This document shows positions 6,377-32,042 of a DNA stretch of 32,042 bases, piece by piece. Both the position numbers and the translations under genes were made by a program. The notes beneath the pieces are model-generated. The model made no database searches and was not told the DNA's origin. It saw only the letters and a list, made by a program, of their open reading frames with translations. The DNA is from Abditibacteriaceae bacterium (GTDB lineage: Bacteria; Armatimonadota; Abditibacteriia; Abditibacteriales; Abditibacteriaceae), in NCBI GenBank assembly GCA_031372065.1, contig JANMKN010000003.1:1-32042 (forward strand), in the 5' to 3' direction. Each line of letters begins with the position of its first letter. The first letter of the stretch is position 1.

Positions 6377-9300
6377 ATGAAGAACTTAGATTTAAGAGTT
6401 CTGTTTTCGACGGTATTCGCGCTTATCATATTTCTCTCAGTCCATGCCGGGGCTGTGCCGAGTAGCCGCACGACATATGCAATTCGCGTTGATGGTTTTA
6501 TCAAGGAAAATAGCACAGGTGGGATGCTTGGGTTAGGTATTGCCGCTCCTGAACGAACACCTTTGTTAAACGGGACGATTACTAATTATCCCGGCGTGTT
6601 GGTTATTGCGCCAACGATTCAAGCAACGCCTAATCCCGATTGGACAAGCGGCCCTAATAGTGTCGAAGTCGGGCTTTATACAGGCAATTATCAACAGCCT
6701 TATCAGGGCGTAAATGGCGATTTGCATCTTTCGTCCAATCTGTGGCTTGGCTTGCAAGAAGGCGCGACACTGTCACCGGGCAGCGATGGAACTTATCAGG
6801 CGCCACAGCAAACACCCGCGTGGGATGTGGCGGTTGTAGATCAACCTTCTCCGCGTCAATTAAAGGTGCAATATCTTAGAGACGATTATGGTGTTTACAA
6901 TTACTTCTTTGTGCCGCCTAATGTTTTTACCAATTACTTGGGCGGCACCATTTATCAAAGGCGCGATCCCAAAAGCCTTTATAATGGCTGGTTAGAGATC
7001 AATTTTTCGTCTGATGAATCTCAGGTTTCCGGCACTATTTTAGTGACTTCAGGTGGCTTGCCCGGCATTGTCGAAGGCGTTTCCTATGGTGCGTATTATT
7101 ACGAAGCCCAATTTAGTGGCACCCGCACTTCTGTGCCGGTGGCGCCGCCAACGGGCAAGTCTTCCGTTTCTGGGAAATTGTTCAATGATATAAACAGCAA
7201 TGGTTATCAAGAATCGTATGAACCCGATCTGCCGGGTTGGACAGTGAAGCTAAAAGCCGTTCTTGGAAGTGACAATTTTACGACCACAACCGATGCGCGC
7301 GGAAATTATTACTTTGCCGATGTGCAAGGCGGCAACGATGAATTTTCCAGTTTCTATCGCATCACGCAGATACGTCCTGCCGGATGGACAAACACAACGC
7401 CTGATGTTGATTATCGAAACATATCCGTGGCGCCGGGAGCGGTTTGGACAGATGAAAACTTTGGAAATAAGCGTGTCGGCTCTAAGATAGCGGGCGGCGT
7501 TTTTCATGATGTGGCAGTGCGCGGGTTTCAGTTCGCGAGTGCAGGCCCCGGCCTCGAAAACGTGCCGGTTTTCCTCGATACCAACGATAACGGTTCGCTG
7601 GACAACGGCGAACCTCAGCAAAAGACAAATGCCCAAGGCTATTATGTCTTTGATGAATTACCGGCAGGTAACTACACCGTGCGCATGATTTTGCCCGGCA
7701 CCGATTGGATTTATATTTCAGCCGCCACCTGGCAAGCCACCTTGGGAACGGACACTATAACGGAGGGAGTGGACTTTGGTGTAGCCCATCTATCTTCGAT
7801 TAAAGGCATAGCTTTTGAGGACATTGATGCTGATGGTTTTCAAGATCAGGGCGAAATGCCGCAGGCTAACTGGCGCATTTATGTGGATGCCAACGACAAC
7901 ACGAAGTTAGATGCTGGTGAGCCAAACGCTTTAACCGATGCCGAGGGAAAGTATGTTTTAAATTTCCTGCGTCCCGGCGCTATCGTAGTGCGCGAAGTGT
8001 CGCAAAGCGGGTGGCAAACAAGCTCACCTTTCGAAGGCGCTTGGCGTGCAATTTTGCTCAGCGACGAAAAGGCTGAAGGCGTCAATTTTGGTAACTCGCG
8101 GCACGGCACTATTGCGGGAACTGTCTTTGAGGACGGCACTGGCGACGGTGTGCCGGACGGTTATAAAGATGCGCCGCTTTCCGGTTGGACGGTCTTTGAA
8201 GACGCCGACAATGACGGAGTTTTCGATAATACCAGCACGACGATAAATTTCTCTGTATCTCAGGGCGTTCCCGATAACGATGTCCTATTCGTGGATTTAC
8301 CTGTCAGTGGCTTAAGTGGACAGATTAATGATGTTGATATTAAATTGAATCTTGCGGTTCTCTCTCCTGATCACGATATTTATCTCATTGCTCCATCAGG
8401 GCGTCGTGTCAAATTGATAAGCGAGGAGGCGAACCTTGATAGCAATTCCTTGACGAATACGATCTTTGATGACCAAGCCAGCATCACACTCTCGGAGGGC
8501 ACCGATCCTTATACTGGAAATTTCCGTCCCGCTGAAGCATTGAGTAATTTCAATGCAGGAGACCCTAATGGCATATGGCGATTGCAAATTGTGGATAACA
8601 CCGACAGTTTTGGAGAAGCCACCCTGCAAAGTTGCTCTGTGATCTTGAAAACCGGCGAAGCGACGGCTGTTAGCGATGCCAACGGCAACTATAAGTTGCA
8701 GCGCATGGCGCCGGGCGCTCATGTAGTGCGCGAAGTGTTGCAATCGGGTTGGATAACAACAACGCCCGGTCTGAGCGCGACTGTTACAGTCGGCAACGGC
8801 GCTATTATTACGCAGAACTTTGCGAATGCCAGACCCGGCAAAGTTTCGGGCATCGTTTGGAATGACATTAACGGCGACCTGTATCAATTCGATGGAGAAC
8901 CGGGCCTGTCTAATTGGCGCGTGTATATTGATGCCGACAACGACGGCATTTTTGATGCTAATGAAAAGAGTGCGCTTACAAATTCACAAGGCGCCTATCA
9001 AATAAGCGGACTTAAGCCGGGCAACTACCTTGTGCGTCAAGTGTTGCAAGCCACTTGGCGGCAATCGTGGCCCAAATTTAATGATGGTCAGCAGGTGCAA
9101 ATGAGTAGCGGAGAAACCGTTGCATTAATAGATTTTGGGAATTCAAAGACAGGCGCGATTTCGGGCCACATCTTTAATGACATAGAAGGCAATGGCGCTC
9201 AAGACTTAACGGATACACCTCTTATCGGTTGGCCGGTTTATCTTGATAGTAACAACAACGGCCAGTTTGATACGACGCTGACTACAAAATCTTCCGCTGA

Positions 9301-11248
9301 TACTCCCAGAACCCTGCTTAACCAAACTACTTCCAGTGTTTCTGTTTCTGGACTGAGCGGAAGCGTGTTGGATATGGAGGTCAAGCTGAACATCCAGCAC
9401 CCCGTTGATAGTGCCCTGAGCGTTTTCTTGGTGACACCATCAGGTCGCCAAATACGTTTATTCGCCAACATTGGCGGCAATGGTGACAATTTTACCAACA
9501 CCGTTTTTAATAACGCCGCTCTGGTGCCGATTCGCTCCGGTTCGCCGCCTTTTATTGGGGTTTTTCAACCCGAAGAAGCGCTTTTCCTATATGCGGGCGA
9601 GAGTTTCAATGGCACTTGGAGTTTGGTTGTTAAGGATTCTACTGCGGGGCAAGCAGGAGGCGTTTTGCAAAATTGGTCGTTGACTTTTCTGACATCTACC
9701 GAAAGGCTGCGCTATACAAATAGCGATGGAAACTACTCCTTTGGGGCTTTAGCCTCCGGCACTTATATAGTGCGCCAAATCAATCAACAAGGCTGGCGTC
9801 GCACCTTTCCTGCTACTGACAACTACAGCGTAACCATCAGCACCGCAACGGATGCCATGGGCCGCGACTTTGGCAATGTGGATACGACAATTCCCACTGC
9901 TGCGCTCAACGATGTGACAATTACGGAGGGGAACAGCGGCACGACCAATGCTACCTTTACCGTCAAACTGGATATAGTCAGCAGCCAAGCCGTGAGTTTG
10001 AATTACGCGACTGCCAACGGCACTGCCGTTGCGACAGGTGACTACACTGGCAAAACCGGCACACTTACTATCCCTGCCGGGCAAACCACGGGCACCATTA
10101 CGATTCCTATTAAAGGTGATGTTTTGGATGAAGCGGATGAGTCATTTTTTGTCAATCTGACTAATCCTGATGGCGCCCGCATTAGCGATGCTCAAGGCCG
10201 TTGCGTCATCGTAGATAACGACGTCACCCCGTCGGTCGCTATCAACGATGTGACACTTATCGAAGGCGATAGCGGCACCAAGAATGCCACATTCACCATC
10301 AAATTGAGCGCGGCCAGCGGCCAAACGGTGACGGTCAATGCCATTCCTTACAACGGTTCAGCGCGCACACCTCAAGATTACGTCACTGGTGGCGCCCGCT
10401 TGGTGTTTGCCTCCGGCGAAACCACAAAGACTTTTAGCGTTCCTGTCAAAGGCGATTTGCTGGATGAGCCGCAGGAAAACTTCTTTGTTATTTTGTCTTC
10501 GCCCGTCAACAGTTCGATTGCGCGGGGCCGCGCCATTGGCACCATCAACGATAACGAAGCAGCGCCTTCGATAAGCATTGACGATGTGCGAATCGGCGAA
10601 GGCAATGTCGGGCAACGCGTCGCGTCCTTCCGTTTGAAGTTGTCAGCGCCCAGCGGCCAAGTAGTTCGTGTCAGCTATGCCACGGCGGGCGGCACCGCTG
10701 CCGCCGGAGTGGATTATGTGGCTGTCCCTGCCACGCAAATCGCTTTTAGCGCAGGTAACCTTTACGCTTACGCCCGTGTGCTGATAAACGGTGATGTGCT
10801 CAACGAACCGGACGAAACTTTTAACGTGAACTTGACGGCACCGCTTAATGCCACCATTGCTGATGCTCAGGCATTGGGCACCATTCTCAACGATGATTCG
10901 GCGCCGTCTCTGACCATCAACGACGTGAGCATCAGCGAAGGCAATAGTGGCACGAAGAATCTGACCTTCACCGTCACGCTGTCCAAAGCCAGCGGCCAGG
11001 CTGTGACTATCATTTATGACACCGCCGATGGCATAGCGAAGTCAAGCAGCGATTACACTGCCAAAAGCGGCACGCTGAGTTTTGCACCGGCGAGTGCTTT
11101 AACTCGCACCTTTAGCGTGGCTATTAGTGGAGACTCGGTAGTGGAAGGTGATGAAACCTTCTTTGTATTTTTGTCAGGCGCCACTAATGCCAGCGTTGGC
11201 AAAGCACGCGGCGTCGGCACGATTTTAAACGACGACACGTCGGGTTAA
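6377..11248 (+). CDS. 1623-aa surface/adhesin-like protein: signal peptide, unique N-terminal domain, about 6 SdrD B-like repeats, 2 proprotein-convertase P-domains, 4 Calx-beta domains
   Basis: Repeated G-x-[VIA]F-x-D-x-[ND]-x-[ND]G...Y-x-VR[EQ]...[ND]FGN units; P-domain motifs (L-x-[AT]PSG, NG-x-W-x-L-x-[IV]-x-D); Calx-beta repeats (INDV-x-x-x-EG...DY...E-x-F-x-V-x-L...GTI-x-NDD). Confidence 0.88.
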   Translation: MKNLDLRVLFSTVFALIIFLSVHAGAVPSSRTTYAIRVDGFIKENSTGGMLGLGIAAPERTPLLNGTITNYPGVLVIAPTIQATPNPDWTSGPNSVEVGLYTGNYQQPYQGVNGDLHLSSNLWLGLQEGATLSPGSDGTYQAPQQTPAWDVAVVDQPSPRQLKVQYLRDDYGVYNYFFVPPNVFTNYLGGTIYQRRDPKSLYNGWLEINFSSDESQVSGTILVTSGGLPGIVEGVSYGAYYYEAQFSGTRTSVPVAPPTGKSSVSGKLFNDINSNGYQESYEPDLPGWTVKLKAVLGSDNFTTTTDARGNYYFADVQGGNDEFSSFYRITQIRPAGWTNTTPDVDYRNISVAPGAVWTDENFGNKRVGSKIAGGVFHDVAVRGFQFASAGPGLENVPVFLDTNDNGSLDNGEPQQKTNAQGYYVFDELPAGNYTVRMILPGTDWIYISAATWQATLGTDTITEGVDFGVAHLSSIKGIAFEDIDADGFQDQGEMPQANWRIYVDANDNTKLDAGEPNALTDAEGKYVLNFLRPGAIVVREVSQSGWQTSSPFEGAWRAILLSDEKAEGVNFGNSRHGTIAGTVFEDGTGDGVPDGYKDAPLSGWTVFEDADNDGVFDNTSTTINFSVSQGVPDNDVLFVDLPVSGLSGQINDVDIKLNLAVLSPDHDIYLIAPSGRRVKLISEEANLDSNSLTNTIFDDQASITLSEGTDPYTGNFRPAEALSNFNAGDPNGIWRLQIVDNTDSFGEATLQSCSVILKTGEATAVSDANGNYKLQRMAPGAHVVREVLQSGWITTTPGLSATVTVGNGAIITQNFANARPGKVSGIVWNDINGDLYQFDGEPGLSNWRVYIDADNDGIFDANEKSALTNSQGAYQISGLKPGNYLVRQVLQATWRQSWPKFNDGQQVQMSSGETVALIDFGNSKTGAISGHIFNDIEGNGAQDLTDTPLIGWPVYLDSNNNGQFDTTLTTKSSADTPRTLLNQTTSSVSVSGLSGSVLDMEVKLNIQHPVDSALSVFLVTPSGRQIRLFANIGGNGDNFTNTVFNNAALVPIRSGSPPFIGVFQPEEALFLYAGESFNGTWSLVVKDSTAGQAGGVLQNWSLTFLTSTERLRYTNSDGNYSFGALASGTYIVRQINQQGWRRTFPATDNYSVTISTATDAMGRDFGNVDTTIPTAALNDVTITEGNSGTTNATFTVKLDIVSSQAVSLNYATANGTAVATGDYTGKTGTLTIPAGQTTGTITIPIKGDVLDEADESFFVNLTNPDGARISDAQGRCVIVDNDVTPSVAINDVTLIEGDSGTKNATFTIKLSAASGQTVTVNAIPYNGSARTPQDYVTGGARLVFASGETTKTFSVPVKGDLLDEPQENFFVILSSPVNSSIARGRAIGTINDNEAAPSISIDDVRIGEGNVGQRVASFRLKLSAPSGQVVRVSYATAGGTAAAGVDYVAVPATQIAFSAGNLYAYARVLINGDVLNEPDETFNVNLTAPLNATIADAQALGTILNDDSAPSLTINDVSISEGNSGTKNLTFTVTLSKASGQAVTIIYDTADGIAKSSSDYTAKSGTLSFAPASALTRTFSVAISGDSVVEGDETFFVFLSGATNASVGKARGVGTILNDDTSG

Positions 11249-16244: not shown

Positions 16245-16304
16245 GTCAACAATTTAACGCCGTTGGCTTGTCGGCACAAGAACGGGGCGCGTTAAACTTT
16301 GCCC
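16245..16304. promoter_or_regulatory. 60-bp symmetric divergent promoter region, probably two leaderless promoters
   Basis: The + strand reads GCGT-TAAACT-N6-ATG and the - strand reads GCGT-TAAATT-N6-ATG; internal dyad CCGTT..CTTGT-cggc-ACAAG-AACGG; no Shine-Dalgarno on either side. Confidence 0.55.
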
Positions 16305-19300
16305 ATGAGACCTCTTCTGCTCCTTTTTATTTTGTTTTGTGGCCTTGCCCACGCCGCGCCGCTGCCGGTTATTAACGCCGATTTTGAAGGCGCGGACGGC
16401 AAAATCGCGGGCTGGCAATTATCCGGCGGACAGGGCGCCGCAAAAACCGAAAACAAAATTTCGTTTGCCAGCGTGACGGGCAACGGTGACGATTCGAGTT
16501 TCTGGCGCAGCGGCGCGCTTTCGTGGCAACCAAACGCCGTTTATTGCCTGAAATTCAAGGCGCGCGGCATGAATGCAGCGGGCGGCACGCCGATTACCGG
16601 GCCGGTTTTTACCAACCGCGATTTAGGCGGCATCGGTGAGCCGTGGCGCGATTACACCACTTATTTTCAAACGCCAAGCCAGATAAATCCCGATAGCGCG
16701 TGGCTGCGTTTCGGGCAATGGCACGTCAAAGGTGAAATCGGTTTCGATGGGGTGCAACTGATGACTGCGCAGCCGGTTTACGCGCGTAGCGGCGCCATTG
16801 AAATGGGCGAAGGCGAAACAATTTCTGGCAACGATTATTCGATGCGCGCCCCGCTGGGCGGCGAGAACAACAACACCAGCCGCGCCTTGTTACGGCACAG
16901 TTGCACTTTCAATTCGGATCGCTGGGTTTTTGGCGCGGGCAGCGAAGTGATTTATAAGCACGAAATCGCCGGACGCGCGCAAACCAAAGCGCAAATTGAA
17001 GTAGGCGTGACGTGGTATTCCGGCGGCCAATTGGCGCTCGAAGCCAGCCGCGATGGACAAAATTGGAAGGCGCTCGGCGCACTCGATAAATTATCGGCAG
17101 GCCAATTTGCTGTGCCCGCCGAATTGCTACCCGCGCAGGCCATTTTCATTCGCTTGCGTGCCCAAAGCAAAACCAAAGTCGGCGAGAATTCTGATCCCGG
17201 CTCGTTTCAAGTTGGCAGCTACCGTTTCAATTCGACTTTCGACGGCGCGCCTGTCGAATTGCGCGGCGTCACGCGCTTTTTTGCGATTGAAAAAGAATCG
17301 CCGAATTTGCCGGTCAAAATAATCACGGCGGGCGATGGATTGCCGGGTGGCAATAATGAAATTGACTTCGAGGTTGAGCGCGGCGCACAAAGTCCACAAA
17401 AAGTGAAAATTGGTTTTCCAGAACTGATGTCATTTGGGCTTTCCGAACACAATCTCGTTTTAGGCGCGCAACGCATTCAAGTGCCTTACAATATGTCGCA
17501 TATAGGGCAGCAAACACGTCATCTTTACATAAGCGATGGCAAAGAAACTCTTTTTTCAGCCACCACTTCGTTTTTTGTGCCCGAACTTTATGCCGCAAAT
17601 TATGGCGAAGCGTTGCCGGATTCGTCGGCGCAAAATAATCTTTGGTGGTGCAGTTCCGGCTGGAAAGTGGCGCAAAAGCGGCCCGCGCCGCAAAACAAAA
17701 GCGCGGCGCTGAAAATTGCCCTCGCGCGCAACGAAAGCGAAGCCGCGCAATTCGTTTTGCGCCCGTTGAGCGGACTGAAAAATCTTGCAATTGAAACGTC
17801 GTCTTTAACGGGCGCCAATGGCGCAACGATTGAGAAAACGAATCTCGAAGTTTTGCGCGTTGGCTATGTGAAAGTGGTGCAGTCGACGGATGAAACCGGC
17901 GTAGCGGATTTCTGGCCTGACCCGCTTTTGCCGATAGAAAAACCGCTCCATTTGGCCGCCAATCAAAATCAGCCCTTCTGGGTGCGCGTTTGGGTGCCCA
18001 AAAGCGCAAAAGCGGGCCTGTATAACGGCAAAATCACGCTCAAAGCCGATAATTACAGCGCGATTGTGCCGCTACAAATTACGGTTTGGAATTTTTCGTT
18101 GCCCGACAAAATGACCTGCGAAACGGCCTTTGGTTTTGATCCCGGCAACGTTTATCGCTACCAGAATTTGAAGACGAATGCCGACAAGCGCCGCGTTTTG
18201 GATTTGTATTGGAAAAGTTTCAGCGCGCATCATATTTCGCCTTACGATCCGGCGCCGCTCGACAGCTTCCAAGTGACGTGGCAAGGCGGCAGTTCGTGGC
18301 AAGGCGGGCAAAAAACCGCAGACGCGCACAGCGGCAAATTTGCGCTCTTGGTGAAAGATGAATCCACCGCGCAACAATATGCGGCCAGTTATAGCGCGCG
18401 ATTCCTAATTCCTAAAAGCGGTTTCAAATTATCGTTCTGGCATCGTGCCACTGCCGGTCATGCGTTTCTTGTGACTTTGACGCACGAAGACGAAAACGGC
18501 CAGTGGATGCCGGGCCGCAACAACGATCTGCGCATCGAAGGCACGGGAAACTGGACGAAGTTTGAAAAAGAAATTAAACAATTTTCGCCCGGCTCCAAGC
18601 AAATTTCTGTGACGCTGCGGCCCGCTTTGTGGGCCGAAGATGGCTCGACAACAGGGCAGGTTTTCTTTGACGATGTTTCGCTGCTTGACCTTGAAAACAA
18701 CAAGGAATTGTTGCCCGACGGCGATTTTGAAAAAGCATCAGCCGCGCCGCATCCGCTTTTCGATTGGACAGCGTGGGACAAAGCGATGGAGCGTGCCATC
18801 AACGAATTCGGTTTCACGATATTTCGCCTGGCGCCGCAAGGTTTGGGCAGCGGCACGTTTGCCTCGCGCGATGAGCCGGAATTAGCCGGATTTTCTGAAA
18901 ATACGCCCGAATATCAAGCGGCGCTCAGGGAATATCTGGGAGGCATCGAAGCGCATTTGAAGGCCAAAGGCTGGCTGGAGAAGGCTTTCGTTTATTGGTT
19001 CGATGAACCCGACCCGAAAGATTACGCTTTTGTGATGAATGGCTTCAAAAAGCTCAAAGATTATGCGCCCGGCCTGCGCCGTATGCTGACCGAACAGCCC
19101 GAAAAAGAACTGCTCGGCGGGCCGAATTTGTGGTGTCCGGTCAGCAGCGAATGGAAGGAAAAAGACGCTCAAGCGCGCATGAAAAGCGGCGATAAATTTT
19201 GGTGGTATGTTTGCACCGTGCCCAAAGCGCCTTATGCCACGGAGTTTATAGATCATCCCGGTAGCGAAATGCGCGTCTGGCTCTGGCAAACATGGCAGCG

Positions 19301-19757
19301 CGGCGTCAGCGGCATTTTAGTGTGGGAAAGCAGCTACTGGACAAGCGGCGCGGCCTATCCCGATGCCTTGCAAAATCCGTATGCCGACCCTATGAGTTGG
19401 GTGTCGGGTTATGGCACCAAAACCGGCACCAAAATTGGCTGGGGCAACGGCGACGGGCGCTTTTTCTATCCGCCGGAAAATTACAACAAAACTGCGGCGC
19501 CGATTATCGCCGGGCCGGTAGATTCAATTCGTTGGGAAATGCTGCGCGATGGCATCGAAGATTACGAATATCTGGCGATTTTAAAGCGCGCTTTGCAAAA
19601 TAAAAATCTCGCGCCACAACGCCGTGCCGAGTTGGAAAAACTGCTGGCCGTGCCGGAATCTATCACCAAAGATGCGACAACTTTCACGCGCGACCCGGCA
19701 CCAATCGAAGCCCGCCGCGCCGAAATTGCACAGTCCATCGCGGCGCTGCAAAAGTGA
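16305..19757 (+). CDS. Secreted multi-domain glycoside hydrolase-like protein (GH123-like / DUF4091) with CBM-like domains
   Basis: Signal peptide; INADFE CBM-like N-terminus; LARNESEAAQ, WPDPL, QPFWVRV, YWFDEP, WWYVC, NGDGRFFYPP, SIRWEMLRDGIEDYEYL. Confidence 0.82.
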   Translation: MRPLLLLFILFCGLAHAAPLPVINADFEGADGKIAGWQLSGGQGAAKTENKISFASVTGNGDDSSFWRSGALSWQPNAVYCLKFKARGMNAAGGTPITGPVFTNRDLGGIGEPWRDYTTYFQTPSQINPDSAWLRFGQWHVKGEIGFDGVQLMTAQPVYARSGAIEMGEGETISGNDYSMRAPLGGENNNTSRALLRHSCTFNSDRWVFGAGSEVIYKHEIAGRAQTKAQIEVGVTWYSGGQLALEASRDGQNWKALGALDKLSAGQFAVPAELLPAQAIFIRLRAQSKTKVGENSDPGSFQVGSYRFNSTFDGAPVELRGVTRFFAIEKESPNLPVKIITAGDGLPGGNNEIDFEVERGAQSPQKVKIGFPELMSFGLSEHNLVLGAQRIQVPYNMSHIGQQTRHLYISDGKETLFSATTSFFVPELYAANYGEALPDSSAQNNLWWCSSGWKVAQKRPAPQNKSAALKIALARNESEAAQFVLRPLSGLKNLAIETSSLTGANGATIEKTNLEVLRVGYVKVVQSTDETGVADFWPDPLLPIEKPLHLAANQNQPFWVRVWVPKSAKAGLYNGKITLKADNYSAIVPLQITVWNFSLPDKMTCETAFGFDPGNVYRYQNLKTNADKRRVLDLYWKSFSAHHISPYDPAPLDSFQVTWQGGSSWQGGQKTADAHSGKFALLVKDESTAQQYAASYSARFLIPKSGFKLSFWHRATAGHAFLVTLTHEDENGQWMPGRNNDLRIEGTGNWTKFEKEIKQFSPGSKQISVTLRPALWAEDGSTTGQVFFDDVSLLDLENNKELLPDGDFEKASAAPHPLFDWTAWDKAMERAINEFGFTIFRLAPQGLGSGTFASRDEPELAGFSENTPEYQAALREYLGGIEAHLKAKGWLEKAFVYWFDEPDPKDYAFVMNGFKKLKDYAPGLRRMLTEQPEKELLGGPNLWCPVSSEWKEKDAQARMKSGDKFWWYVCTVPKAPYATEFIDHPGSEMRVWLWQTWQRGVSGILVWESSYWTSGAAYPDALQNPYADPMSWVSGYGTKTGTKIGWGNGDGRFFYPPENYNKTAAPIIAGPVDSIRWEMLRDGIEDYEYLAILKRALQNKNLAPQRRAELEKLLAVPESITKDATTFTRDPAPIEARRAEIAQSIAALQK

Positions 19758-19771
19758 AACGAATTGTGCAA

Positions 19772-20125
19772 TCACCGCTTCTTTTTCAAAGCCACCGCGC
19801 CCCAGATGAACAAGGCGGCAACGCCAAGCAGCACAAGGCCAATAAGTCCAAGACTAACTGTATCTGAGGGTGAAGCGCCCAGTCCGCCAGCACTTGCAAC
19901 CAACATAAAACAAGCGCCTGCCGCGCCGAAAATCAAGGCCAAGCCGACCAAAATAATCAGCCCGATAATACGCAAGGCGATGGTGATGCCAGAGCCTTGC
20001 GTGGGCAAAGGCGCGCCGCAATGCGGGCAAAACGTCGCATTAGTCTGCAAATCTTTGCCGCAGTTGAAACATTGCTTGCCACCAGAGGGGGGAAGGGGTG
20101 GCAGAGGTTCGGGAGTGTTTTTCAT
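19772..20125 (-). CDS. Zinc-ribbon + 2-TM membrane protein with internal lipobox-like GAAGAC
   Basis: CFNCG...FCPHCGAPL; two hydrophobic helices; basic C-terminus KKKR. Confidence 0.8.
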   Translation of the reverse strand: MKNTPEPLPPLPPSGGKQCFNCGKDLQTNATFCPHCGAPLPTQGSGITIALRIIGLIILVGLALIFGAAGACFMLVASAGGLGASPSDTVSLGLIGLVLLGVAALFIWGAVALKKKR

Positions 20126-20137
20126 GGTATCTTGAGG

Positions 20138-20503
20138 TTATTTGCGCCACTTTCTTATTGCAATAGCTCCCCAAATGCACAATGCTGTGCAACTGAGTAA
20201 GGCAAGGCCGATTAAGCCATAGCCGAGTGGAGTCACATTGGGATTACCGCCCAAGTCTGGCGACACTCCGCCTATACCTGCAACTACCATACAACAGGCA
20301 CCGGCGGCACCGAGCACCAATGCCAGACCAATCAAAATCATAATGCCAATGATGCGCAGTGCGATAGTTACACCAGAGCCTTGCGTTGGCAAAGGCGCAC
20401 CGCAGTGCGGGCAAAAGGTGACATGAGTTCCCAAGTCTTCGCCGCAGTTGAAACATTGCTTATTATCTGGTGCAGGTTGCGTTTCCTGTGATGTTGATTT
20501 CAT
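20138..20503 (-). CDS. Zinc-ribbon + 2-TM membrane protein (paralog) with GAAGACC
   Basis: Likely start MKSTSQET at 20503 (RBS AAGGA; ATGA overlap with the upstream stop); closely similar to 19772-20125 in protein and DNA. Confidence 0.8.
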   Translation of the reverse strand: MKSTSQETQPAPDNKQCFNCGEDLGTHVTFCPHCGAPLPTQGSGVTIALRIIGIMILIGLALVLGAAGACCMVVAGIGGVSPDLGGNPNVTPLGYGLIGLALLSCTALCIWGAIAIRKWRK

Positions 20504-20844
20504 CGTGTATTCCTTCTCGAACGACGAAAACGCAAAAATTGACCGACTATCCAGAGAAGTAAAACCGCTAATGCTACAATTGGATGCTCGAATAGAAAAC
20601 GAAAGGCCCACCACGCTCCGCCGCCTAAAGCCACAAGACAGGTGCCTATCGCGCCGATAAAAATGGCTATGCCTGCCATTGCGGACAAATTTGCACGCTT
20701 TTTGGACTTCTTTATTGCAGAATCTTCTCGCAAAGCGGTGCCACAATGCGGGCAAAATGCCACGTTTGCTTGCACTTCCTTGCCGCAATGAGGGCAGAGG
20801 ATAGTTGTGGATTTAGTAATTTGGTCAGCACAAACCTCGCTCAT
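20500..20844 (-). CDS. Zinc-ribbon + TM membrane protein with GAIGTC
   Basis: CPHCG...FCPHCG; RBS GGAG inside the end of the lgt-like gene; hydrophobic helices; Arg-rich C-terminus. Confidence 0.75.
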   Translation of the reverse strand: MSEVCADQITKSTTILCPHCGKEVQANVAFCPHCGTALREDSAIKKSKKRANLSAMAGIAIFIGAIGTCLVALGGGAWWAFRFLFEHPIVALAVLLLWIVGQFLRFRRSRRNTR

Positions 20845-20848
20845 GTGG

Positions 20849-21535
20849 TTATATCTCCGAAAGCTGTTTGACGGTGCGGCGCGTCCACAGCCACCACAGC
20901 GCGGCGCTGATTAAAATTTCTACGCAAACCCATTGTGCCAGCGACAGGCCGCCAAACAAAGCCGAACTATCGCGGAAAAACTCCAAAACAAAGCGCCCGA
21001 CAGCAAAAAGCAGCAGCCACGCGCGAAATAAATCGCCTTCGCGCGAAAGTTTTGGGCGAAGAATTAATAGTGCCACGAAAATGGAAGCCGAAATCAGTGC
21101 CGCGTAAATCTGCGCCGGATGCCGCCATGCGCCCTGTTGATAAATCGCCCACGGCATCTGGCAAATTTTTCCATAGCAGCAGCCGTTAAAATAGCAACCA
21201 AAACGTCCGACAGCTTCTCCGGCGGGCAAGGCCAGCGCCCACAAGTCGCCCGTTGAACGCGTGATGCTCAGTCGTTTTTTGCACAATTCGACGGCCAGCC
21301 AGCCGCCGATTAAGCCGCCCATTAAGGCTTTGCCATTAGCGCCTGCAAAATTCAAATTCGCGCCCGGTGTGGAAAGCAAGGCGCCAATGCGCGCGCCGAT
21401 AACGCCGCCACATAAACCGGCAATCGCAATGTAGCCGATGCCTTCCGTCGCCAGCTTTTTGCCGCGCGCCGCCAAATAAAACACAACCGCGCCGACAATA
21501 AAACCGAGCAAAGTAAAAAGTTCGCCTATTTTCAT
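20849..21535 (-). CDS. Prolipoprotein diacylglyceryl transferase (Lgt) family protein, non-canonical paralog
   Basis: GGVIGARI, GEAVGRFGCYFNGCCYG, RHPAQIY, RFVLEFFR, LSLAQW; polytopic hydrophobic profile; short (228 aa). Confidence 0.88.
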   Translation of the reverse strand: MKIGELFTLLGFIVGAVVFYLAARGKKLATEGIGYIAIAGLCGGVIGARIGALLSTPGANLNFAGANGKALMGGLIGGWLAVELCKKRLSITRSTGDLWALALPAGEAVGRFGCYFNGCCYGKICQMPWAIYQQGAWRHPAQIYAALISASIFVALLILRPKLSREGDLFRAWLLLFAVGRFVLEFFRDSSALFGGLSLAQWVCVEILISAALWWLWTRRTVKQLSEI

Positions 21536-21538
21536 GGT

Positions 21539-21799
21539 TTAAAATGGAAGACAGAGCCTTGGCGATACAGAAAGGGCAGGATTAAAACGATTCCGCGAGT
21601 TTTGCAGCCTGTTGAGCGTCGCAAAACATATCTCGTGCCCGCGAAAACGATGCTCCGGCTCGCGAAAACGATGCTCCGGCTCACGAAATCGATGCTCCGG
21701 TTCAAGAAATGACTGCTCCGGCCCGCGAAATGGATGCTCCGGCTCAAGAAATGATGTCTCCGCGCCGAGAAACGATGTCTCCGACTGCCGCAAACGCAT
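21539..21799 (-). CDS. Possible 86-aa heptad-repeat peptide (EPEHRFR)n
   Basis: ATG 6 nt after the radical SAM stop and stop 3 nt before the lgt-like start, so it fills the gap exactly; it could also be an artefact of the stop-free 21-bp repeat. Confidence 0.3.
   Translation of the reverse strand: MRLRQSETSFLGAETSFLEPEHPFRGPEQSFLEPEHRFREPEHRFREPEHRFRGHEICFATLNRLQNSRNRFNPALSVSPRLCLPF
21638..21784. repeat. Tandem repeat, about 7 x 21 bp (consensus CYCGCGAAAWCGATGCTCCGG)
   Basis: Units start at 21638, 21659, 21680, 21701, 21722, 21743 and 21764 and degenerate toward the right; no spacers. Confidence 0.92.
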
Positions 21800-21805
21800 C
21801 TTTGT

Positions 21806-23371
21806 CTATTTTGCCGTCAACGCAATCGTCGCCGGAAAATCTTGCGCGTCATCAAAAAGATAGCGCCAGCAGAACGAATAACGGCGCGGGTCGCTTTCGA
21901 AAGTGCCACTATGCACGCAGCATTGGCGAAGGCGGGCTTCGTGCAAAGTGTGGCTGTCCATGAACATTTTTATCGTCACGCGAAAGGTGCGTTCGGCGGC
22001 TTTGTTGAGGTCGTCGGCGGATAATTCGCCGCGTGGATACAGCAAATTCATCAAGTCGGAGAGTTCGCCCATGCAGCCGCAAAGTTTGGCTAAATCGCGC
22101 GCCAGTTGCGGCGCACCCAGCGGCAGTTGCTCGGAGAAAACGCGCGCTAAAGCGCCGGAAGACAGCATTCCTTTGACGGCGTCCGAGGCGCTTTCAAACG
22201 AAATGGTGTTGGACACCAAATGCAGCCATTTTTTCAGTTCGTCGCGCCCGATAAGTTGCGGCAGCGATTTCCAGCCGCGCCGCGTTTTGAGAAAATACGA
22301 AATATCACAGCAATCGCGGTGCGAGCAGGGCAGGGGAATGAAATCATTCGGCCCGGCCAAACCTTTGCTTTGCGCTTGTAAGCGGCGTTGCACGCCGGTG
22401 GGTGTGAGGCGGCTCTGCGGGTCGAAATGCGGCGCGCGGCCCGAACCGAACATCGGCTGAATCGCTAATCCTGTGCAGCGTTTTGTATCCAAACCGAGTT
22501 GCAAAACCGCGCCGATTTCGTCGTCGTTGACGCCTTGCGCGGCAGTCATGACCAGCGTTGTCCAAATTTCGGCTTCGCTTAAACGGCGCAGCGCTTGGAG
22601 TTTTTCTTCGGCGACATTTTCGCCGCGCAAAGTTTGATAAGTTGACGGCTTAAAGCCATCGAATTGCAAATAGACTTCGAGTCGCTCGCGCTGGCTTTGC
22701 AAGAACTCCAAAAATTTATCGTCGCGCGCGATGCGGCGCCCGTTGGTGTTCAGCAAAATGCGCGTGATGGGCAAATCGCTGAGAGCTTCAATCAGTTGCG
22801 GTAAATCTTCGCGCACCGTTGGTTCGCCGCCAGAGAGCATTAAAACGCCGAGTTTGTCGTTTTCGCGCGCTAAAATCGTTTCGACAGTGTGGCGAATTTC
22901 ATTTATCGTCGGATATTCCGGCTTTGGCGAGGGTGTTCCCGGCTTGAGCGCGCCCGCGTAGCAAGCCGGGCACGCATAATTGCAGCGCTGCGTGACATTG
23001 AGCAATAAAATGCAAGTGTGCTGGCCGTGCGAGGCGGGCAGGCCGTTTTGATAGCCGTGCGGAAACGCACCGAAATTATCGGCGCGGTCGGGCGTGATTT
23101 GCAAAGTCGGCGCGCTCCAGCCGTTGCGGTTGCGCCAGATTTCGGCGTCTTCCTCGTAAAGCGATTCGCTTTCGCCATGCAGCGCGCAAAAACGGCGCAT
23201 CCAAATTTTGCCGCCCTTTGAAATCAGCATTCCATCGCGCCACACATCTTCATCGCTGCGGCGCGGCGTCTCGAAACATTGCGGGCAAACGGTCGTGGTG
23301 TATTCTTCAATGAGATAATCGCGCGGCGGCAAGCCGGAAGTCGGCAAGCCGCGCGGTTTTGAATCCGTCAT
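21806..23371 (-). CDS. Radical SAM enzyme of the tetraether lipid synthase (Tes/GDGT-MAS, MJ0619)-like family
   Basis: N-terminal T-x-x-x-CPQC...CALHG metal site; CNYACPAC radical SAM motif; SGGEPT, NTNG, VYLQFDG, GVNDDEIG; C-terminal PCSHRDC, FMD, RQCCVH, YSFC. Confidence 0.85.
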   Translation of the reverse strand: MTDSKPRGLPTSGLPPRDYLIEEYTTTVCPQCFETPRRSDEDVWRDGMLISKGGKIWMRRFCALHGESESLYEEDAEIWRNRNGWSAPTLQITPDRADNFGAFPHGYQNGLPASHGQHTCILLLNVTQRCNYACPACYAGALKPGTPSPKPEYPTINEIRHTVETILARENDKLGVLMLSGGEPTVREDLPQLIEALSDLPITRILLNTNGRRIARDDKFLEFLQSQRERLEVYLQFDGFKPSTYQTLRGENVAEEKLQALRRLSEAEIWTTLVMTAAQGVNDDEIGAVLQLGLDTKRCTGLAIQPMFGSGRAPHFDPQSRLTPTGVQRRLQAQSKGLAGPNDFIPLPCSHRDCCDISYFLKTRRGWKSLPQLIGRDELKKWLHLVSNTISFESASDAVKGMLSSGALARVFSEQLPLGAPQLARDLAKLCGCMGELSDLMNLLYPRGELSADDLNKAAERTFRVTIKMFMDSHTLHEARLRQCCVHSGTFESDPRRYSFCWRYLFDDAQDFPATIALTAK

Positions 23372-23413: not shown

Positions 23414-23965
23414 ATGAAGAAGTATCGCGTTTGGATTTTGCTATCGCTTTTCATTTTGGCAAGCGCCTCGCTTTGGTTTTACTGGCCGCGCGGCGGAATT
23501 TTGCGCTGGCCGCCAACTCCTACGCGTGTGCGCTTAACGCGGCCTTATGGCATGGCGCCGCAAGCGTTTGAGGCGTTCATTCGCGCTTGTAGCAAGTCCA
23601 AAATTCATCCATATCGCATCGGGCAAACGATTGGCGAGCATCCGTTGTCGGTTGGCTATCACAAAAAAGATGGCATCACCAAGTGGAAAGGCGATTCGTT
23701 TGAATATTGTGCTGCTGTGGATTTGGGCACCAGCGATTTGAACGATTATCAGATCAAAAACTTTCTCGAATCGCTGGCTCAGCAAGGTTTTGCGGCGTTT
23801 TACCGGCACGAAGGCCATTGGAAGGGACACGAGCATATTCACGCGATTTATGGGCTTTTGCCGATGAAATCGCAGTTGCGCGGCCAAGTGAAGCAGTTTT
23901 TGCGCGAACGGCGCGCAACGCGCCAGAAACCACTCAAATGGGCGCGCCGATTCAAAAACTTATGA
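23414..23965 (+). CDS. Membrane-anchored hypothetical protein, putative LAS/M15-type Zn peptidase
   Basis: N-terminal TM; S-x-G-Y-H...AVDL...GFAAFYR...EHIHA gives the H...D...HxH ligand order. Confidence 0.55.
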   Translation: MKKYRVWILLSLFILASASLWFYWPRGGILRWPPTPTRVRLTRPYGMAPQAFEAFIRACSKSKIHPYRIGQTIGEHPLSVGYHKKDGITKWKGDSFEYCAAVDLGTSDLNDYQIKNFLESLAQQGFAAFYRHEGHWKGHEHIHAIYGLLPMKSQLRGQVKQFLRERRATRQKPLKWARRFKNL

Positions 23966-29193: not shown

Positions 29194-32042
29194 TTAACCG
29201 CCGGAAGCGTCGTCGTCCAGAATAGTGCCTTGGCCTTGACCATCGCTGATGGTCGCACCCGCAGCGTTGCTCAAATCCACGGTGAAGGTTTCGTCGTTTT
29301 CATGAACGGCGTCGCCTACCACCGTGACGGTGATGGTTTTGGTCGTCTCGTTCGGCGCAAAAGTCAGAGTGCCAGCTTTACCGCTGTAATCGCCCGGTTT
29401 CACCGCGCTGCCGTTGCCTGTTTGATACGACACCGTCACCGCTTGGCCGCTGACCTTCGACAAACTCACCGTAAAGACGAAGTTCGTCGTGCCGCTGCTG
29501 CCTTCGGCCAAAGTCACATCGTTAATCGAAAGTTTAGGCAAGGCGTCGTCGTTGGTGAGGACTTGCGTGCCCGTCTTGCTGCCTAAGGTGCCAGCCTTAG
29601 CCGAGAGAAGTTGCAAACGAATCGTTTCATCGGCTTCGGGCACCGTGTCACGCTGCACTACAAACGCGACAGCTTTGTTGGTTTGGCCCGGTGTGAAGGT
29701 CAGCGTGCCACCATCACCGCCGGGAGCGGTGTAATCGCTGCCGTAGGTCGCCGTGCCGCCAAAGCTATAGGTCACAACCACTGGTCTGCTGCTGGCAGCC
29801 GACAATCGCACTGAGAAGTGCAGGCTTTGCGTGCCGCTGTTGCCTTCGTTGATGGCGACTAAATCGGCGGTGGAGACAGTGGGCAAGGGATCGTTATCGT
29901 CAATGAAGGCGCGTCCGCCCAAAATGCCGCCATTGCTGCGAATGCTGGCCTGATTGCTGTTGGACAACAAGAGGCGGAAGGCTTCTTGCAGTTCGTTCAA
30001 GCTGTCGTCCAAAACTGGCACACTGATGGTTTTGCTGGTTTCTCCCACGTTGATGGTGTAGCTTGTGGTTGCCAACCCTGTATAATCGCTGCCTGCCGTG
30101 GCCGAGTAGTCTTGGGTGGCGGCATCGAAGGTGATAGCGCGCAAGGCCGGACTGCCCAAACTCACCACAAAGTCGGCGTTGATGCCACCCACGGTTTCAG
30201 TGACGGTGGGATTGCTCACACTCAGCACTTCGCTTTCAAAGGCGCCGATGTCAGGCTTGCCGCCGCTGGGTTGCGGGCGCGGGAAGCCGCGCTGATCGGT
30301 GGCCGGAGCATTGGCAGCATTGGCTTTGCCCTGCGCCGGAGAGCCGGGCAAAAGCGCCATCGTCTTGGTCGGTCCGCCGTTGTCGGCTAAAGCGCTCAGT
30401 TTGGCATCGAGCGCATTGGCCGCTGTGCCGACTTGATCGCCATTGACGCCGTTGACGAAGCCGGGGGCCGCGCTGCCGTCACCAATCAAGTTGTAGCCGC
30501 CGGAAACAAAAGTGCCACTGGCGCCGCCACTCACGTCGCCGACCGCGTTGTTGGTGGCGATGGTGTTCTTGATCGTCGCGCTGGCGCCGGGGTTGTAGAT
30601 GCCGTAGAAGGAGTTACCGCTAACAGTGCAACTCGCAATGGTCGCTGTGCTGCCGATGGTGATAGAAATGGCGCTGTTGTTGCCGGTCACTGTTGTATTC
30701 GTGATGGTCGCTGTGCCGTCGCTGTAAATGGCGACACCATCGCCGGTGCTATTGGTATTGCCGCTCGCCGTGCAGTTCGTGACGGTCATCGTGGGGTTGG
30801 TTGGGAGGCCGTTGGTGAAGTTATCGAAACCGTAACTATTACCGCTCGCGGTGCAATTGGTAATAATCGCCGTCCCGAAGTTATAAATGCCAACGAAGCC
30901 TTTGCTGACGGTCAGGCCACTGAAAGTAGCGCTCACGCCAGTCTTCACTTGGAAGATAGCAAACGATTTGTTGCTGTCGCTTTCTTCGATTGTCAGCAAA
31001 TTGGCGCCGGGGCCGGTGATGGTCACAGCCTCGCTTAGGTCATTTAACGCAGTGCCGAGCAGGATGGTCTGCGCGCTGTTGAAGAGCGCAGAGAAGGTAA
31101 TCTCACTGGCATCAGCGTCGCTGTTGGCATAAGCAATCGCTTCGCGCAGGCTGGTGCCGCTGCCATAAGCCGGGTCGCTGGTGCCGTTGTCTTCATCCGC
31201 CGTGGTCGTCACCACGAGGGATTCGTTAGGCGTGAATTGCAATTCAAAGGCGCCGATGTCGTCGCGGTTGACTTGTGGACGTGCCACGCCGCGCTGATCG
31301 GTCGTGAGCGTGGTGTCCGTGGTGTCACCCGCGTTGATGGCTAGGCTACCGCCTTGCAGCGCCATCGTTTGCGTGGGGCCGCCGTTGTCAGCCAAAGCAC
31401 TCAGCTTCAACTGTGCCGCCGTGCCGCCGTTTTGGTCGCCGGACTGATTGAAGTTGCCTATTCCGTTGCCATCGCCGATGAGGTTGAAGCCCAAACTCAC
31501 GAATGAGTTGGTGCTGTTATCACAGGAAACATCGGTGCCGCTGTCAGAGCTGCCGGGCAGCGAGGTGCGGTTGTCGGCGATAATGCTGTTCTGCACGCGT
31601 GTGCGGGTGAAGTTGTTGCCAGACGAGAATACTCCGCTGCCCGCATCCAGCGGCGCGCTGTTGCCGGCAATGGTGCAGCTTTCGATGCGCAGCAGTCCCT
31701 GAAGGCTGTAAATACCTCCACCTCCCGTGGAGGCGCTGTTGCCGGAGATGGTGCTGTTGCGCAGCAGCGTGCTGCTCGCTGGATCAGGCTGCCCGACCAC
31801 GAAAGCCGAGGGGCTGCTGTAAATACCGCCGCCCCTCACTGCGGAGTTATTGCTGAGGGTGCTGTTTTCCACCGTCAGCGTGCCAAAGCCGTTATAGATG
31901 CCGCCGCCGCCGCCGCTGATGTTGGGGTCGGGAGTGGAGTTATTGCTGAGGGTGCTGTTTTTCACCGTCAGCGTGCCGGAGTTAGAGATGCCGCCGCCGG
32001 AGAAGCGCGCGGAGTTATTGCTGAGGGTGCTGTTTTCCACCG
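29194..32042 (-). CDS. Large surface protein, 5'-truncated: beta-helix repeats, two choice-of-anchor Q domains, CSLREA-like motif, three Calx-beta domains
   Basis: NST-x-S-x-N...GGGI repeats; S-x-G-[FY]NLIGDG...LADNGGPT-x-TMAL..GS-x-A...TDQRG...DIGAFE twice; GTSLREAI; C-terminal Calx-beta units. The frame runs off the window edge. Confidence 0.88.
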   Translation of the reverse strand, partial: VENSTLSNNSARFSGGGISNSGTLTVKNSTLSNNSTPDPNISGGGGGIYNGFGTLTVENSTLSNNSAVRGGGIYSSPSAFVVGQPDPASSTLLRNSTISGNSASTGGGGIYSLQGLLRIESCTIAGNSAPLDAGSGVFSSGNNFTRTRVQNSIIADNRTSLPGSSDSGTDVSCDNSTNSFVSLGFNLIGDGNGIGNFNQSGDQNGGTAAQLKLSALADNGGPTQTMALQGGSLAINAGDTTDTTLTTDQRGVARPQVNRDDIGAFELQFTPNESLVVTTTADEDNGTSDPAYGSGTSLREAIAYANSDADASEITFSALFNSAQTILLGTALNDLSEAVTITGPGANLLTIEESDSNKSFAIFQVKTGVSATFSGLTVSKGFVGIYNFGTAIITNCTASGNSYGFDNFTNGLPTNPTMTVTNCTASGNTNSTGDGVAIYSDGTATITNTTVTGNNSAISITIGSTATIASCTVSGNSFYGIYNPGASATIKNTIATNNAVGDVSGGASGTFVSGGYNLIGDGSAAPGFVNGVNGDQVGTAANALDAKLSALADNGGPTKTMALLPGSPAQGKANAANAPATDQRGFPRPQPSGGKPDIGAFESEVLSVSNPTVTETVGGINADFVVSLGSPALRAITFDAATQDYSATAGSDYTGLATTSYTINVGETSKTISVPVLDDSLNELQEAFRLLLSNSNQASIRSNGGILGGRAFIDDNDPLPTVSTADLVAINEGNSGTQSLHFSVRLSAASSRPVVVTYSFGGTATYGSDYTAPGGDGGTLTFTPGQTNKAVAFVVQRDTVPEADETIRLQLLSAKAGTLGSKTGTQVLTNDDALPKLSINDVTLAEGSSGTTNFVFTVSLSKVSGQAVTVSYQTGNGSAVKPGDYSGKAGTLTFAPNETTKTITVTVVGDAVHENDETFTVDLSNAAGATISDGQGQGTILDDDASGG
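31843..32042. repeat. Three near-identical 42-bp coding direct repeats
   Basis: GGAGTTATTGCTGAGGGTGCTGTTTTYCACCGTCAGCGTGCC at 31843 and 31936, partial copy at 32011; encodes GTLTV[EK]NSTLSNNS. Confidence 0.9.

Follow-up and report, generated by a model that had tools for sequence, protein, structure and literature searches.

In a 32,042-nucleotide stretch of the genome of an Abditibacteriaceae bacterium (assembly GCA_031372065.1, contig JANMKN010000003.1), hereafter the window, five co-oriented genes encode an enzyme of the radical S-adenosylmethionine (SAM) type, or rSAM, a member of the Lgt family (the Lgt paralog) and three small membrane proteins, s1 to s3, that carry a conserved cysteine. 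Our results show that these five genes belong together in a genuine, conserved module, beyond chance, and that its minimal core is formed by the rSAM, the paralog and a cysteine-bearing acceptor protein. The linkage, the co-retention of the genes, the folds, the arginines retained in the paralog and the conserved cysteine were all computed here. We put at roughly one in two the probability that the rSAM modifies a lipid and that the paralog transfers the modified diacylglyceryl to the cysteine of a protein that stays uncleaved.

The module is apparently undescribed. No publication joining an enzyme similar to the archaeal Tes (GDGT-MAS) with an Lgt paralog was found in a search that covered mostly main texts outside the subscription journals, and the module is not described in the accessible parts of PMC13188914, PMC4758666, PMC13274423, 10.1101/2025.01.07.631728 or 10.1101/2024.02.27.582317. 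Its parts come from known superfamilies, yet it lies outside both Tes and the canonical Lgt/lipobox pathway.

Conservation and spread of the module

The first-pass annotation of the window had suggested a survey of gene neighbourhoods for an rSAM, an Lgt and a small G-x-C membrane protein. In the loci surveyed, the best 80 of 288 confirmed ones, a co-oriented Lgt-family gene adjoins the rSAM in 67, so that the linkage is conserved. These loci fall into at least eight phylum-level groups, and record titles spread the module over Armatimonadota/Abditibacteriota, Chloroflexota, Actinomycetota, Gemmatimonadota, Rhodothermales, Bacillota, Bacteroidota, Ignavibacteria, Patescibacteria and Woesearchaeota. 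Most Lgt-linked loci (59/67) encode at least one small membrane protein with G/A-x-C at the end of a helix. Of the 13 loci lacking an adjacent Lgt, ten run into a contig edge on the side where it would be expected, L029 and L049 are without it in the fetched DNA, and L080 is part of a sister clade of the rSAM. The flanks of 20 archaeal Tes loci and of 16 loci of the type of TrsS, a selenoprotein family (PMC13188914), short in both cases, showed no Lgt within 1.5 kb.

Co-retention is also seen among 41 related genomes, which are kin and hence not independent. The rSAM is present in 23 of them, and the paralog occurs in 21 of the 23 rSAM-positive genomes and in none of the 18 negative ones (presence was called at E < 1e-55, a threshold placed at a visible gap, and one frameshifted copy was counted in addition). 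The mirror-tree correlation of 0.78 over 63 genomes is inflated by kinship and is not counted as support. In one genome of the same genus (L002; G002:C8 and C15) both rSAM and paralog contain stops, and an acceptor gene and the gene for protein X (see below) lie on another contig; these stops reflect either joint decay or long-read errors.

An evenly drawn sample of Bacteroidota was searched with the Tes family model. Matches were obtained in 12 of 101 genomes, the seed included; the paralog lies in the flank of 9 of these 12 and a small membrane open reading frame (ORF) with a cysteine ending its last helix in 10, of which 8 have G-x-C. The module is rare in Bacillota, where 15 of 151 genomes match and only the seed falls in the cassette clade. 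Plasmid copies of the cassette exist, and a Mycobacterium branderi plasmid bears it in full. Fimbriimonas ginsengisoli (rSAM match P0045), Clostridium bowmanii and Mangrovibacterium marinum are among its hosts that are in culture. Directly upstream of a mycobacterial plasmid cassette, and co-oriented with it, stand two DUF3558 genes (L188:3242-4299). A search for phage carriage of the cassette was without match, and anti-phage profiles from PADLOC 2.0 gave only generic matches of the rSAM core to viperin models.

Three metagenome-assembled genomes (MAGs) titled Woesearchaeota (L043, L055 and L074) have a full cassette accompanied by ICMT-like and DUF4395 genes. In these and in one Patescibacteria MAG, all of them incomplete, the paralog is the sole Lgt detected and searches for LspA were negative; one more cassette-bearing MAG titled Woesearchaeota, the fourth, encodes a canonical Lgt as well as LspA. 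The phospholipid synthesis family PF01066 occurs in 3 of these 5 small genomes and is uninformative. No Lgt had previously been recognised in DPANN archaea, as far as the accessible text of PMC12462473 goes.

The two enzymes and the proteins encoded with them

The rSAM gene (21806-23371, minus strand; PF04055 and PF23545) encodes 521 amino acids and belongs to an Lgt-linked clade of the Tes/TrsS superfamily. The motifs noted in the first-pass annotation were found in the sequence: a rubredoxin-type CxxC...CxxH (C29, C32, C62 and H65) and a C-terminal group of cysteines (C349, C354, C355, C431, C433, C484, C485 and C501). The CxxxCxxC of the SAM cluster (C130, C134 and C137) is present as well. 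Its best sequence match in the Protein Data Bank is 7TOL (E 4.5e-39), and its structure model, in which residues 387-447 mostly have a confidence score (pLDDT) below 50, matches GDGT-MAS 7TOM over its full length with a template modelling (TM) score of 0.72 and 22% identity, the next match being SkfB at 0.35. The enzyme has the four-domain fold with the rubredoxin site and the SAM cluster. We rejected a MoaA or SPASM identity: TIGR02666 gives 57 of 284 bits, on the core only, and the fold is that of GDGT-MAS.

Family models place the enzyme below the cut-offs of both Tes (NF045702, 182 bits against 450) and TrsS (NF045646, 221 bits against 490, the highest-scoring NCBIfam model). In a tree of 113 sequences, made with FastTree only after removal of two partial rows, the 77 cassette enzymes group in one clade (support 0.81, rising to 0.99 when two sister rows are included) that is distinct from Tes and TrsS, and 19 Tes form a separate clade (0.999). 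The comparison proposed in the first-pass annotation therefore has a double outcome: the fold is Tes-like and not that of MoaA, and the enzyme is no Tes ortholog, for it scores below the cut-off and lies in a clade of its own.

Metal ligands bear on what this enzyme could do. The N-cluster ligands C73, C77 and C80 of Tes correspond to F103, N109 and P112, H115 being kept, and these cysteines are lost in all 42 enzymes of the window's branch. Tes residues M439 and Y459, which are dispensable for its activity (residues and ligands after PMC9433317 and PMC13459092), are replaced by K468 and S488. Three cysteines found in 19/19 Tes, which judging by their conservation would be the ligands of its coupling cluster, are kept in the window's branch (C354, C484 and C501 in the rSAM of the window). 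Another three (C120, C349 and C485) are common to all cassette branches and absent from Tes. Since auxiliary-cluster ligands differ between branches, Tes-type coupling is possible in the window's branch and cannot be assumed for the family. The sister clade (L080:1311-3773, L185, L187 and L147), hosted by Nitrosotalea and by haloarchaeal and mycobacterial plasmids, lies beside genes for a class I methyltransferase and for thioredoxin-like or DUF3179 proteins, with no Lgt.

The Lgt paralog (20849-21535, minus strand) has 228 amino acids. Its assignment to the Lgt family was borne out by PF01790 (121 bits), by seven helices and by a structure model that matches 5AZB with a TM score of 0.74. The host genome carries two Lgts. 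The housekeeping copy (G000:C161) follows lspA, passes TIGR00544, keeps H103 and carries N146C, whereas the paralog scores 73 bits against that model, below its cut-off of 118.9. The paralog keeps R111 (R143 in Escherichia coli), G122 (G154), R181 (R239), E185 and R188, and has M72 for H103, K69 for M100, G4 for Y26 and C114 for N146.

The 64 cassette paralogs compared fall together in a single clade that excludes 6 housekeeping Lgts (support 0.999), and all 64 retain R143, G154 and R239. The position of H103 is occupied by L, V, I, T, M or F in the 64 paralogs, and by Leu in one housekeeping-type copy; N146 is Cys in 64/64, and M100 is R or K in 63/64 as against Leu in 6/6 housekeeping copies. 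Paralogs of the Actinomycetota/Chloroflexota branch have His at the Y26 position in 14/14 cases, and the M. branderi plasmid copy has both Y26H and N146C. In E. coli Lgt, H103, Y26 and N146 are essential; other bacteria differ among themselves at H103 and N146, and M100 sits at the first lipid site (PMC4728403, PMC13251419). Judged from its sequence, catalysis by the paralog is plausible. That it is a dedicated copy, with the co-encoded cysteine proteins as its likely acceptors, had been proposed at first pass and is well supported by inference and by the conserved linkage.

The three likely acceptors of the window, also on the minus strand, are s1 (114 amino acids, 20500-20844), s2 (121 amino acids from its ATG, 20138-20503) and s3 (117 amino acids, 19772-20125). 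The tight coupling reported for the last four of the five co-oriented genes, with a 4-bp gap, an ATGA overlap and a 12-bp gap, is present at the places given. At its N-terminus each small protein has a zinc ribbon of the CxxC-CxxC type (PF13240, above cut-off in 3/3), which the first-pass annotation had passed over, and two membrane helices follow. Because they are paralogs (s2 and s3 are 62-67% identical), their motifs are not three independent occurrences. The G-[AT]-C described in all three is there, as I-G-T-C69 in s1 (codon 20638-20640), A-G-A-C70-C71 in s2 (C70 codon 20294-20296) and A-G-A-C72 in s3 (codon 19910-19912). It had been placed at the end of the first helix, which does not hold: at least four hydrophobic residues follow the cysteine, and then the second helix. 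Nor is it a lipobox. None of the three matches the canonical consensus [LVI][ASTVI][GAS]C (PMC4728403), and the motif is a glycine at -2 with hydrophobic residues after the cysteine. Compared with a canonical prolipoprotein, these proteins have no short N-terminal signal peptide; the zinc ribbon precedes the helix, and the cysteine is found at 69-72.

Across loci we scored G-x-C after 13 uncharged hydrophobic residues in mechanical six-frame ORFs, from which protein X and ICMT-like ORFs had been removed beforehand. Of the 179 co-oriented membrane ORFs that lie no more than 1.5 kb from an rSAM, 86 have the motif, compared with 2/81 beyond 3 kb, 1/74 on the opposite strand and 27/2172 genome-wide. 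Five of 97 motif matches were DUF4395 proteins and were dropped, leaving 92 for charge and flank counts. K/R residues are richer before the helix than after the cysteine in 87/92 acceptors, and this excess places the cysteine outside (on positive-inside counts only), mostly 16-27 residues past the last K/R. Residues +2 to +5 are hydrophobic in 80/92 acceptors, as against 1/18 canonical-like lipoproteins of the host genome. By these sequence features the acceptors look uncleaved.

Acceptors are otherwise dissimilar, with a zinc ribbon and a hairpin in the window and, elsewhere, proteins that end 4-13 residues past the cysteine; those of different phyla have no cytoplasmic motif in common. In the window's lineage the family stands in variable arrays of up to about ten members per locus, and in the host genome it is limited to three. 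The cysteine is kept at the aligned column in 73 of 87 array profile matches, the profile being built mostly from cysteine-bearing rows. Long arrays of zinc-ribbon hairpins, some distant from the cassette and some without the cysteine, were observed in L158 (G012:C1:4856400-4859700), L023 and L020, and a four-helix protein with no Pfam match is inserted in the acceptor array at L016:2816-3208 and L166:3170-3625.

A further gene ends the operon in relatives of the window. It encodes protein X, a 103-amino-acid, three-helix membrane protein with two invariant cysteines predicted on the cytoplasmic face, and was detected in 36 of the 80 loci; in the host genome it is relocated to G000:C231:7448-7759 (L101:2449-2760). 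Among the 41 relatives protein X occurs in 21, of which 20 are rSAM-positive (20/23), even when it lies on another contig; in the sole rSAM-negative carrier it stands at a contig end, adjoining an acceptor gene. Protein X has no Pfam or NCBIfam match, the Atlas returned only hypothetical clusters, and its match to DUF4395 covers 20 columns at a probability of 9%. In the branch of Clostridia, Candidate Phyla Radiation (CPR) and DPANN genomes, 30 loci have DUF4395 and an ICMT/PEMT-like gene in place of X, and Bacteroidota loci show neither X, which was not detected beside any of 12 rSAMs there, nor the DUF4395 and ICMT-like genes. Protein X, or elsewhere DUF4395 and the ICMT-like methyltransferase, would be a branch-specific accessory. 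At L065:7364-9292 an ICMT-like domain is fused to DUF4395, and an ArsP-type permease is inserted before the paralog.

The 270-bp gap between the rSAM and paralog genes contains a 21-bp tandem repeat of 6.8 copies (21637-21783, no strand assigned). This repeat is inserted and is no functional part of the cassette as far as tested; it also matches contigs C395, C368 and C5, and resembles a small dispersed element. In the nearest relative, L001, it is absent and the two genes overlap by 4 bp. An 86-amino-acid ORF in this gap was rejected as a gene, being read-through of the repeat with no family match. Scans for promoters and terminators gave chance-level results only. Fusions of rSAM and Lgt were looked for among longer proteins, a weak test, and neither of the 2 matches obtained has a radical SAM domain. 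The nearest named relatives are Abditibacteriaceae MAGs, at 88% identity.

Divergent from the rSAM gene and 42 bp from it, an ORF at 23414-23965 (plus strand, 183 amino acids) has an N-terminal hydrophobic stretch, an HxH motif and a weak Atlas lead to Peptidase_M15_3. We rejected it as a processing protease and do not count it in the core, because in the fetched loci it adjoins the rSAM in only 2 other close relatives. Convergent with the cassette is a GH123-like glycoside hydrolase gene (16299-19757), and two large Calx-beta surface proteins are encoded at 6377-11248, in lower-GC DNA, and at 29194-32040.

Proposed reaction and competing explanations

The rSAM is expected to work inside the cell because it has no signal peptide and needs SAM. 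By the positive-inside rule, acceptor cysteines would lie on the outer side, a turn or so into the outer leaflet and level with the Lgt active site. As the two enzymes would then act on opposite faces, and the acceptors have no common cytoplasmic feature, a lipid is the simplest shared intermediate and the rSAM would act first. In the reaction that we favour, the cytoplasmic rSAM would remodel a phospholipid at the terminus of an acyl chain, after which the paralog would move the diacylglyceryl part of this unusual lipid onto the conserved cysteine of acceptors that stay whole, cleavage by LspA not being required. The need for a private Lgt would come from a donor and an acceptor that are each non-standard; the Arg or Lys at the M100 position may replace the lost histidine base or bind an extra anion.

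What the rSAM would make is divided about evenly within this proposal between a tail-coupled lipid and a terminal C-S or other single-chain product. Loading of a macrocyclic or bilayer-spanning lipid on the acceptor cysteine is thus a tentative idea. The two hydrophobic lipid pockets of GDGT-MAS are described in PMC9433317. The cross-linking or cyclisation of lipid tails put forward at first pass is not established, since the enzyme is not a Tes ortholog, its sister clade looks non-lipid and the putative coupling cysteines are lost in other branches.

Several observations weigh against the lipid-modification proposal. L029 and L049 look complete, with rSAM and acceptors, and the paralog is absent within the fetched DNA. 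Lipid-synthesis genes do not recur near the 80 loci. The cysteine is missing at the aligned column in 14 of 87 array members. Enzymes of the Clostridia/CPR/DPANN and Bacteroidota branches have lost the equivalents of C354, C484 and C501 and retain the N-cluster in their place. A lipid substrate is not proven by the fold, because the neighbourhoods of the sister clade and of TrsS look non-lipid. Finally, activity of the paralog is not assured, H103 being replaced in 64/64 copies and Y26 being Gly in the window's branch.

The alternative that survives best, which we still consider unlikely, is that the paralog adds an ordinary diacylglyceryl and the rSAM acts on the protein or at a later step, for instance cross-linking a tail or residue to the cytoplasmic cysteines of X. 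The retention of X with the rSAM even off-contig, its two invariant cysteines and the three near-invariant cysteines of the cassette clade that are foreign to Tes (C120, C349 and C485) would fit such a role; the absence of detectable X at the 12 Bacteroidota rSAMs and of a shared cytoplasmic motif in the acceptors speaks against it. Less probable is an end product that is a free lipid, membrane-spanning or ether-like, with the small proteins as recyclable carriers or scaffolds holding it transiently on their cysteine. A thioether-linked diacylglyceryl is stable, which counts against a transient load, as does the expansion of acceptor genes to about ten per locus, unlike what a catalytic carrier would need. 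The Tes fold and the three putative coupling-cluster cysteines kept in the window's branch agree with a free lipid, and bacterial Tes homologs have been proposed to make branched glycerol dialkyl glycerol tetraethers (GDGTs; PMC8941075); such homologs, however, match producers poorly, being found in only 3 of 14 acidobacteria that produce iso-diabolic acid (PMC13159169).

Lower again we place non-lipid chemistry by the rSAM (sulfur, selenium, metalloid or methyl transfer), the cysteine proteins being thiol or metal carriers anchored by the paralog. The methyltransferase and thioredoxin neighbours of the sister clade, the selenoprotein nature of TrsS, the permease within the L065 cassette and the ICMT/PEMT-like gene of one branch point in this direction; against it, families linked to arsenic, selenium or thioredoxin are not recurrent neighbours at the 80 loci, and proteins with at least two membrane helices require no anchor. 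It is more improbable still that the paralog has no catalytic activity and assists the rSAM as a lipid-binding scaffold or in a flippase-like role, with G-x-C as a disulfide or metal site. Equivalents of H103, Y26 and N146 are indeed lost, and the second Lgt of Mycobacterium smegmatis, MSMEG_5408, which bears Y26H and N146C (PMC13251419), failed to complement a Corynebacterium glutamicum lgt mutant (PMC12462473, PMC13251419). But R143, G154 and R239 are invariant in 64/64, the host's housekeeping Lgt also carries N146C, a dedicated enzyme would likewise fail on canonical lipoboxes, and a motif resembling the lipobox lies beside the Lgt fold across phyla. Ordinary maturation, in which lipidated acceptors cut by LspA release short or hairpin lipopeptides and the rSAM link is incidental, has very little left in its favour: the lipobox-like motif lies at signal-peptide cysteine depth and many acceptors end 4-13 residues beyond it, but the hydrophobic +2 to +5 residues are not those of canonical-like lipoproteins, the rSAM linkage is near universal, and LspA never recurs in the surveyed loci and went undetected in 4 of the 5 cassette-bearing MAGs of small genome size.

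If lipid remodelling followed by transfer is correct, the module would be a second self-contained prokaryotic route of S-linked lipidation, one that acts on integral membrane proteins, involves no cleavage of a signal peptide and draws on radical chemistry at lipid tails. Such a route would account for the spare Lgt copies of many genomes, possibly including MSMEG_5408, and would mean that a bacterial-type Lgt is present in DPANN archaea. If the product were in addition tail-coupled, this would be a new post-translational modification, with a range that takes in Armatimonadota, mycobacteria and DPANN archaea, and making it would be the true function of many bacterial "Tes homologs" that are currently interpreted as branched-GDGT synthases. 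Whatever the mechanism, the module is relevant to lipid geochemistry: most Tes-like matches of the Bacteroidota sample belong to it, and scoring bacterial Tes homologs as branched-GDGT synthases is therefore unsafe. With its patchy distribution, its copies on plasmids and its variable arrays, the module may have an envelope role in biotic interaction.

Comparison with known systems

The rSAM resembles Tes/GDGT-MAS (MJ0619; 7TOL, 7TOM; NF045702) in its whole-length fold, rubredoxin CxxC..CxxH, SAM cluster and, in the window's branch, three cysteines, and differs from it by the extra C120, C349 and C485 and by the adjacent Lgt paralog, found at 0/20 Tes loci. With TrsS (NF045646) it shares C120, but it lies in a separate clade and below the cut-off, and 0/16 TrsS-type loci are near an Lgt. 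Compared with Lgt (E. coli, 5AZB; PF01790; TIGR00544), the paralog keeps R143, G154, H196, R239, E243 and R246; unlike it, it has no H103, a basic residue at M100 and a small head domain. As in the Lgt pathway, a hydrophobic helix leads up to the acceptor cysteine on the outer side of the membrane. In contrast to lipobox substrates, the acceptor helices are internal or C-terminal, with a glycine at -2 and hydrophobic residues after the cysteine, and LspA and Lnt are absent from the module.

Eukaryotic CaaX processing, through prenylation, Rce1 and ICMT, leaves a thioether lipid on a cysteine near a hydrophobic C-terminus. The module is reminiscent of it in the thioether lipid that such a cysteine would carry, and the Clostridia/CPR/DPANN branch also in an ICMT-like methyltransferase. 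The module differs in having no protease and in a cysteine predicted outside, ICMT being cytoplasmic; the window has no such methyltransferase.

The bacterial rSAM Mss, a synthase of membrane-spanning lipids, couples bacterial acyl chains tail to tail and shows that this chemistry occurs in bacteria (PMC13159169, PMC13459092); according to the accessible descriptions it makes free lipids and is only remotely related to Tes, which sets it apart from the cassette rSAM. For MSMEG_5408, no rSAM neighbour is mentioned in the available parts of PMC13251419 and PMC12462473. Its combination of Y26H and N146C is the one found in 14/14 Actinomycetota/Chloroflexota cassette paralogs and in the M. branderi plasmid copy, a lead to its possible membership of the cassette.

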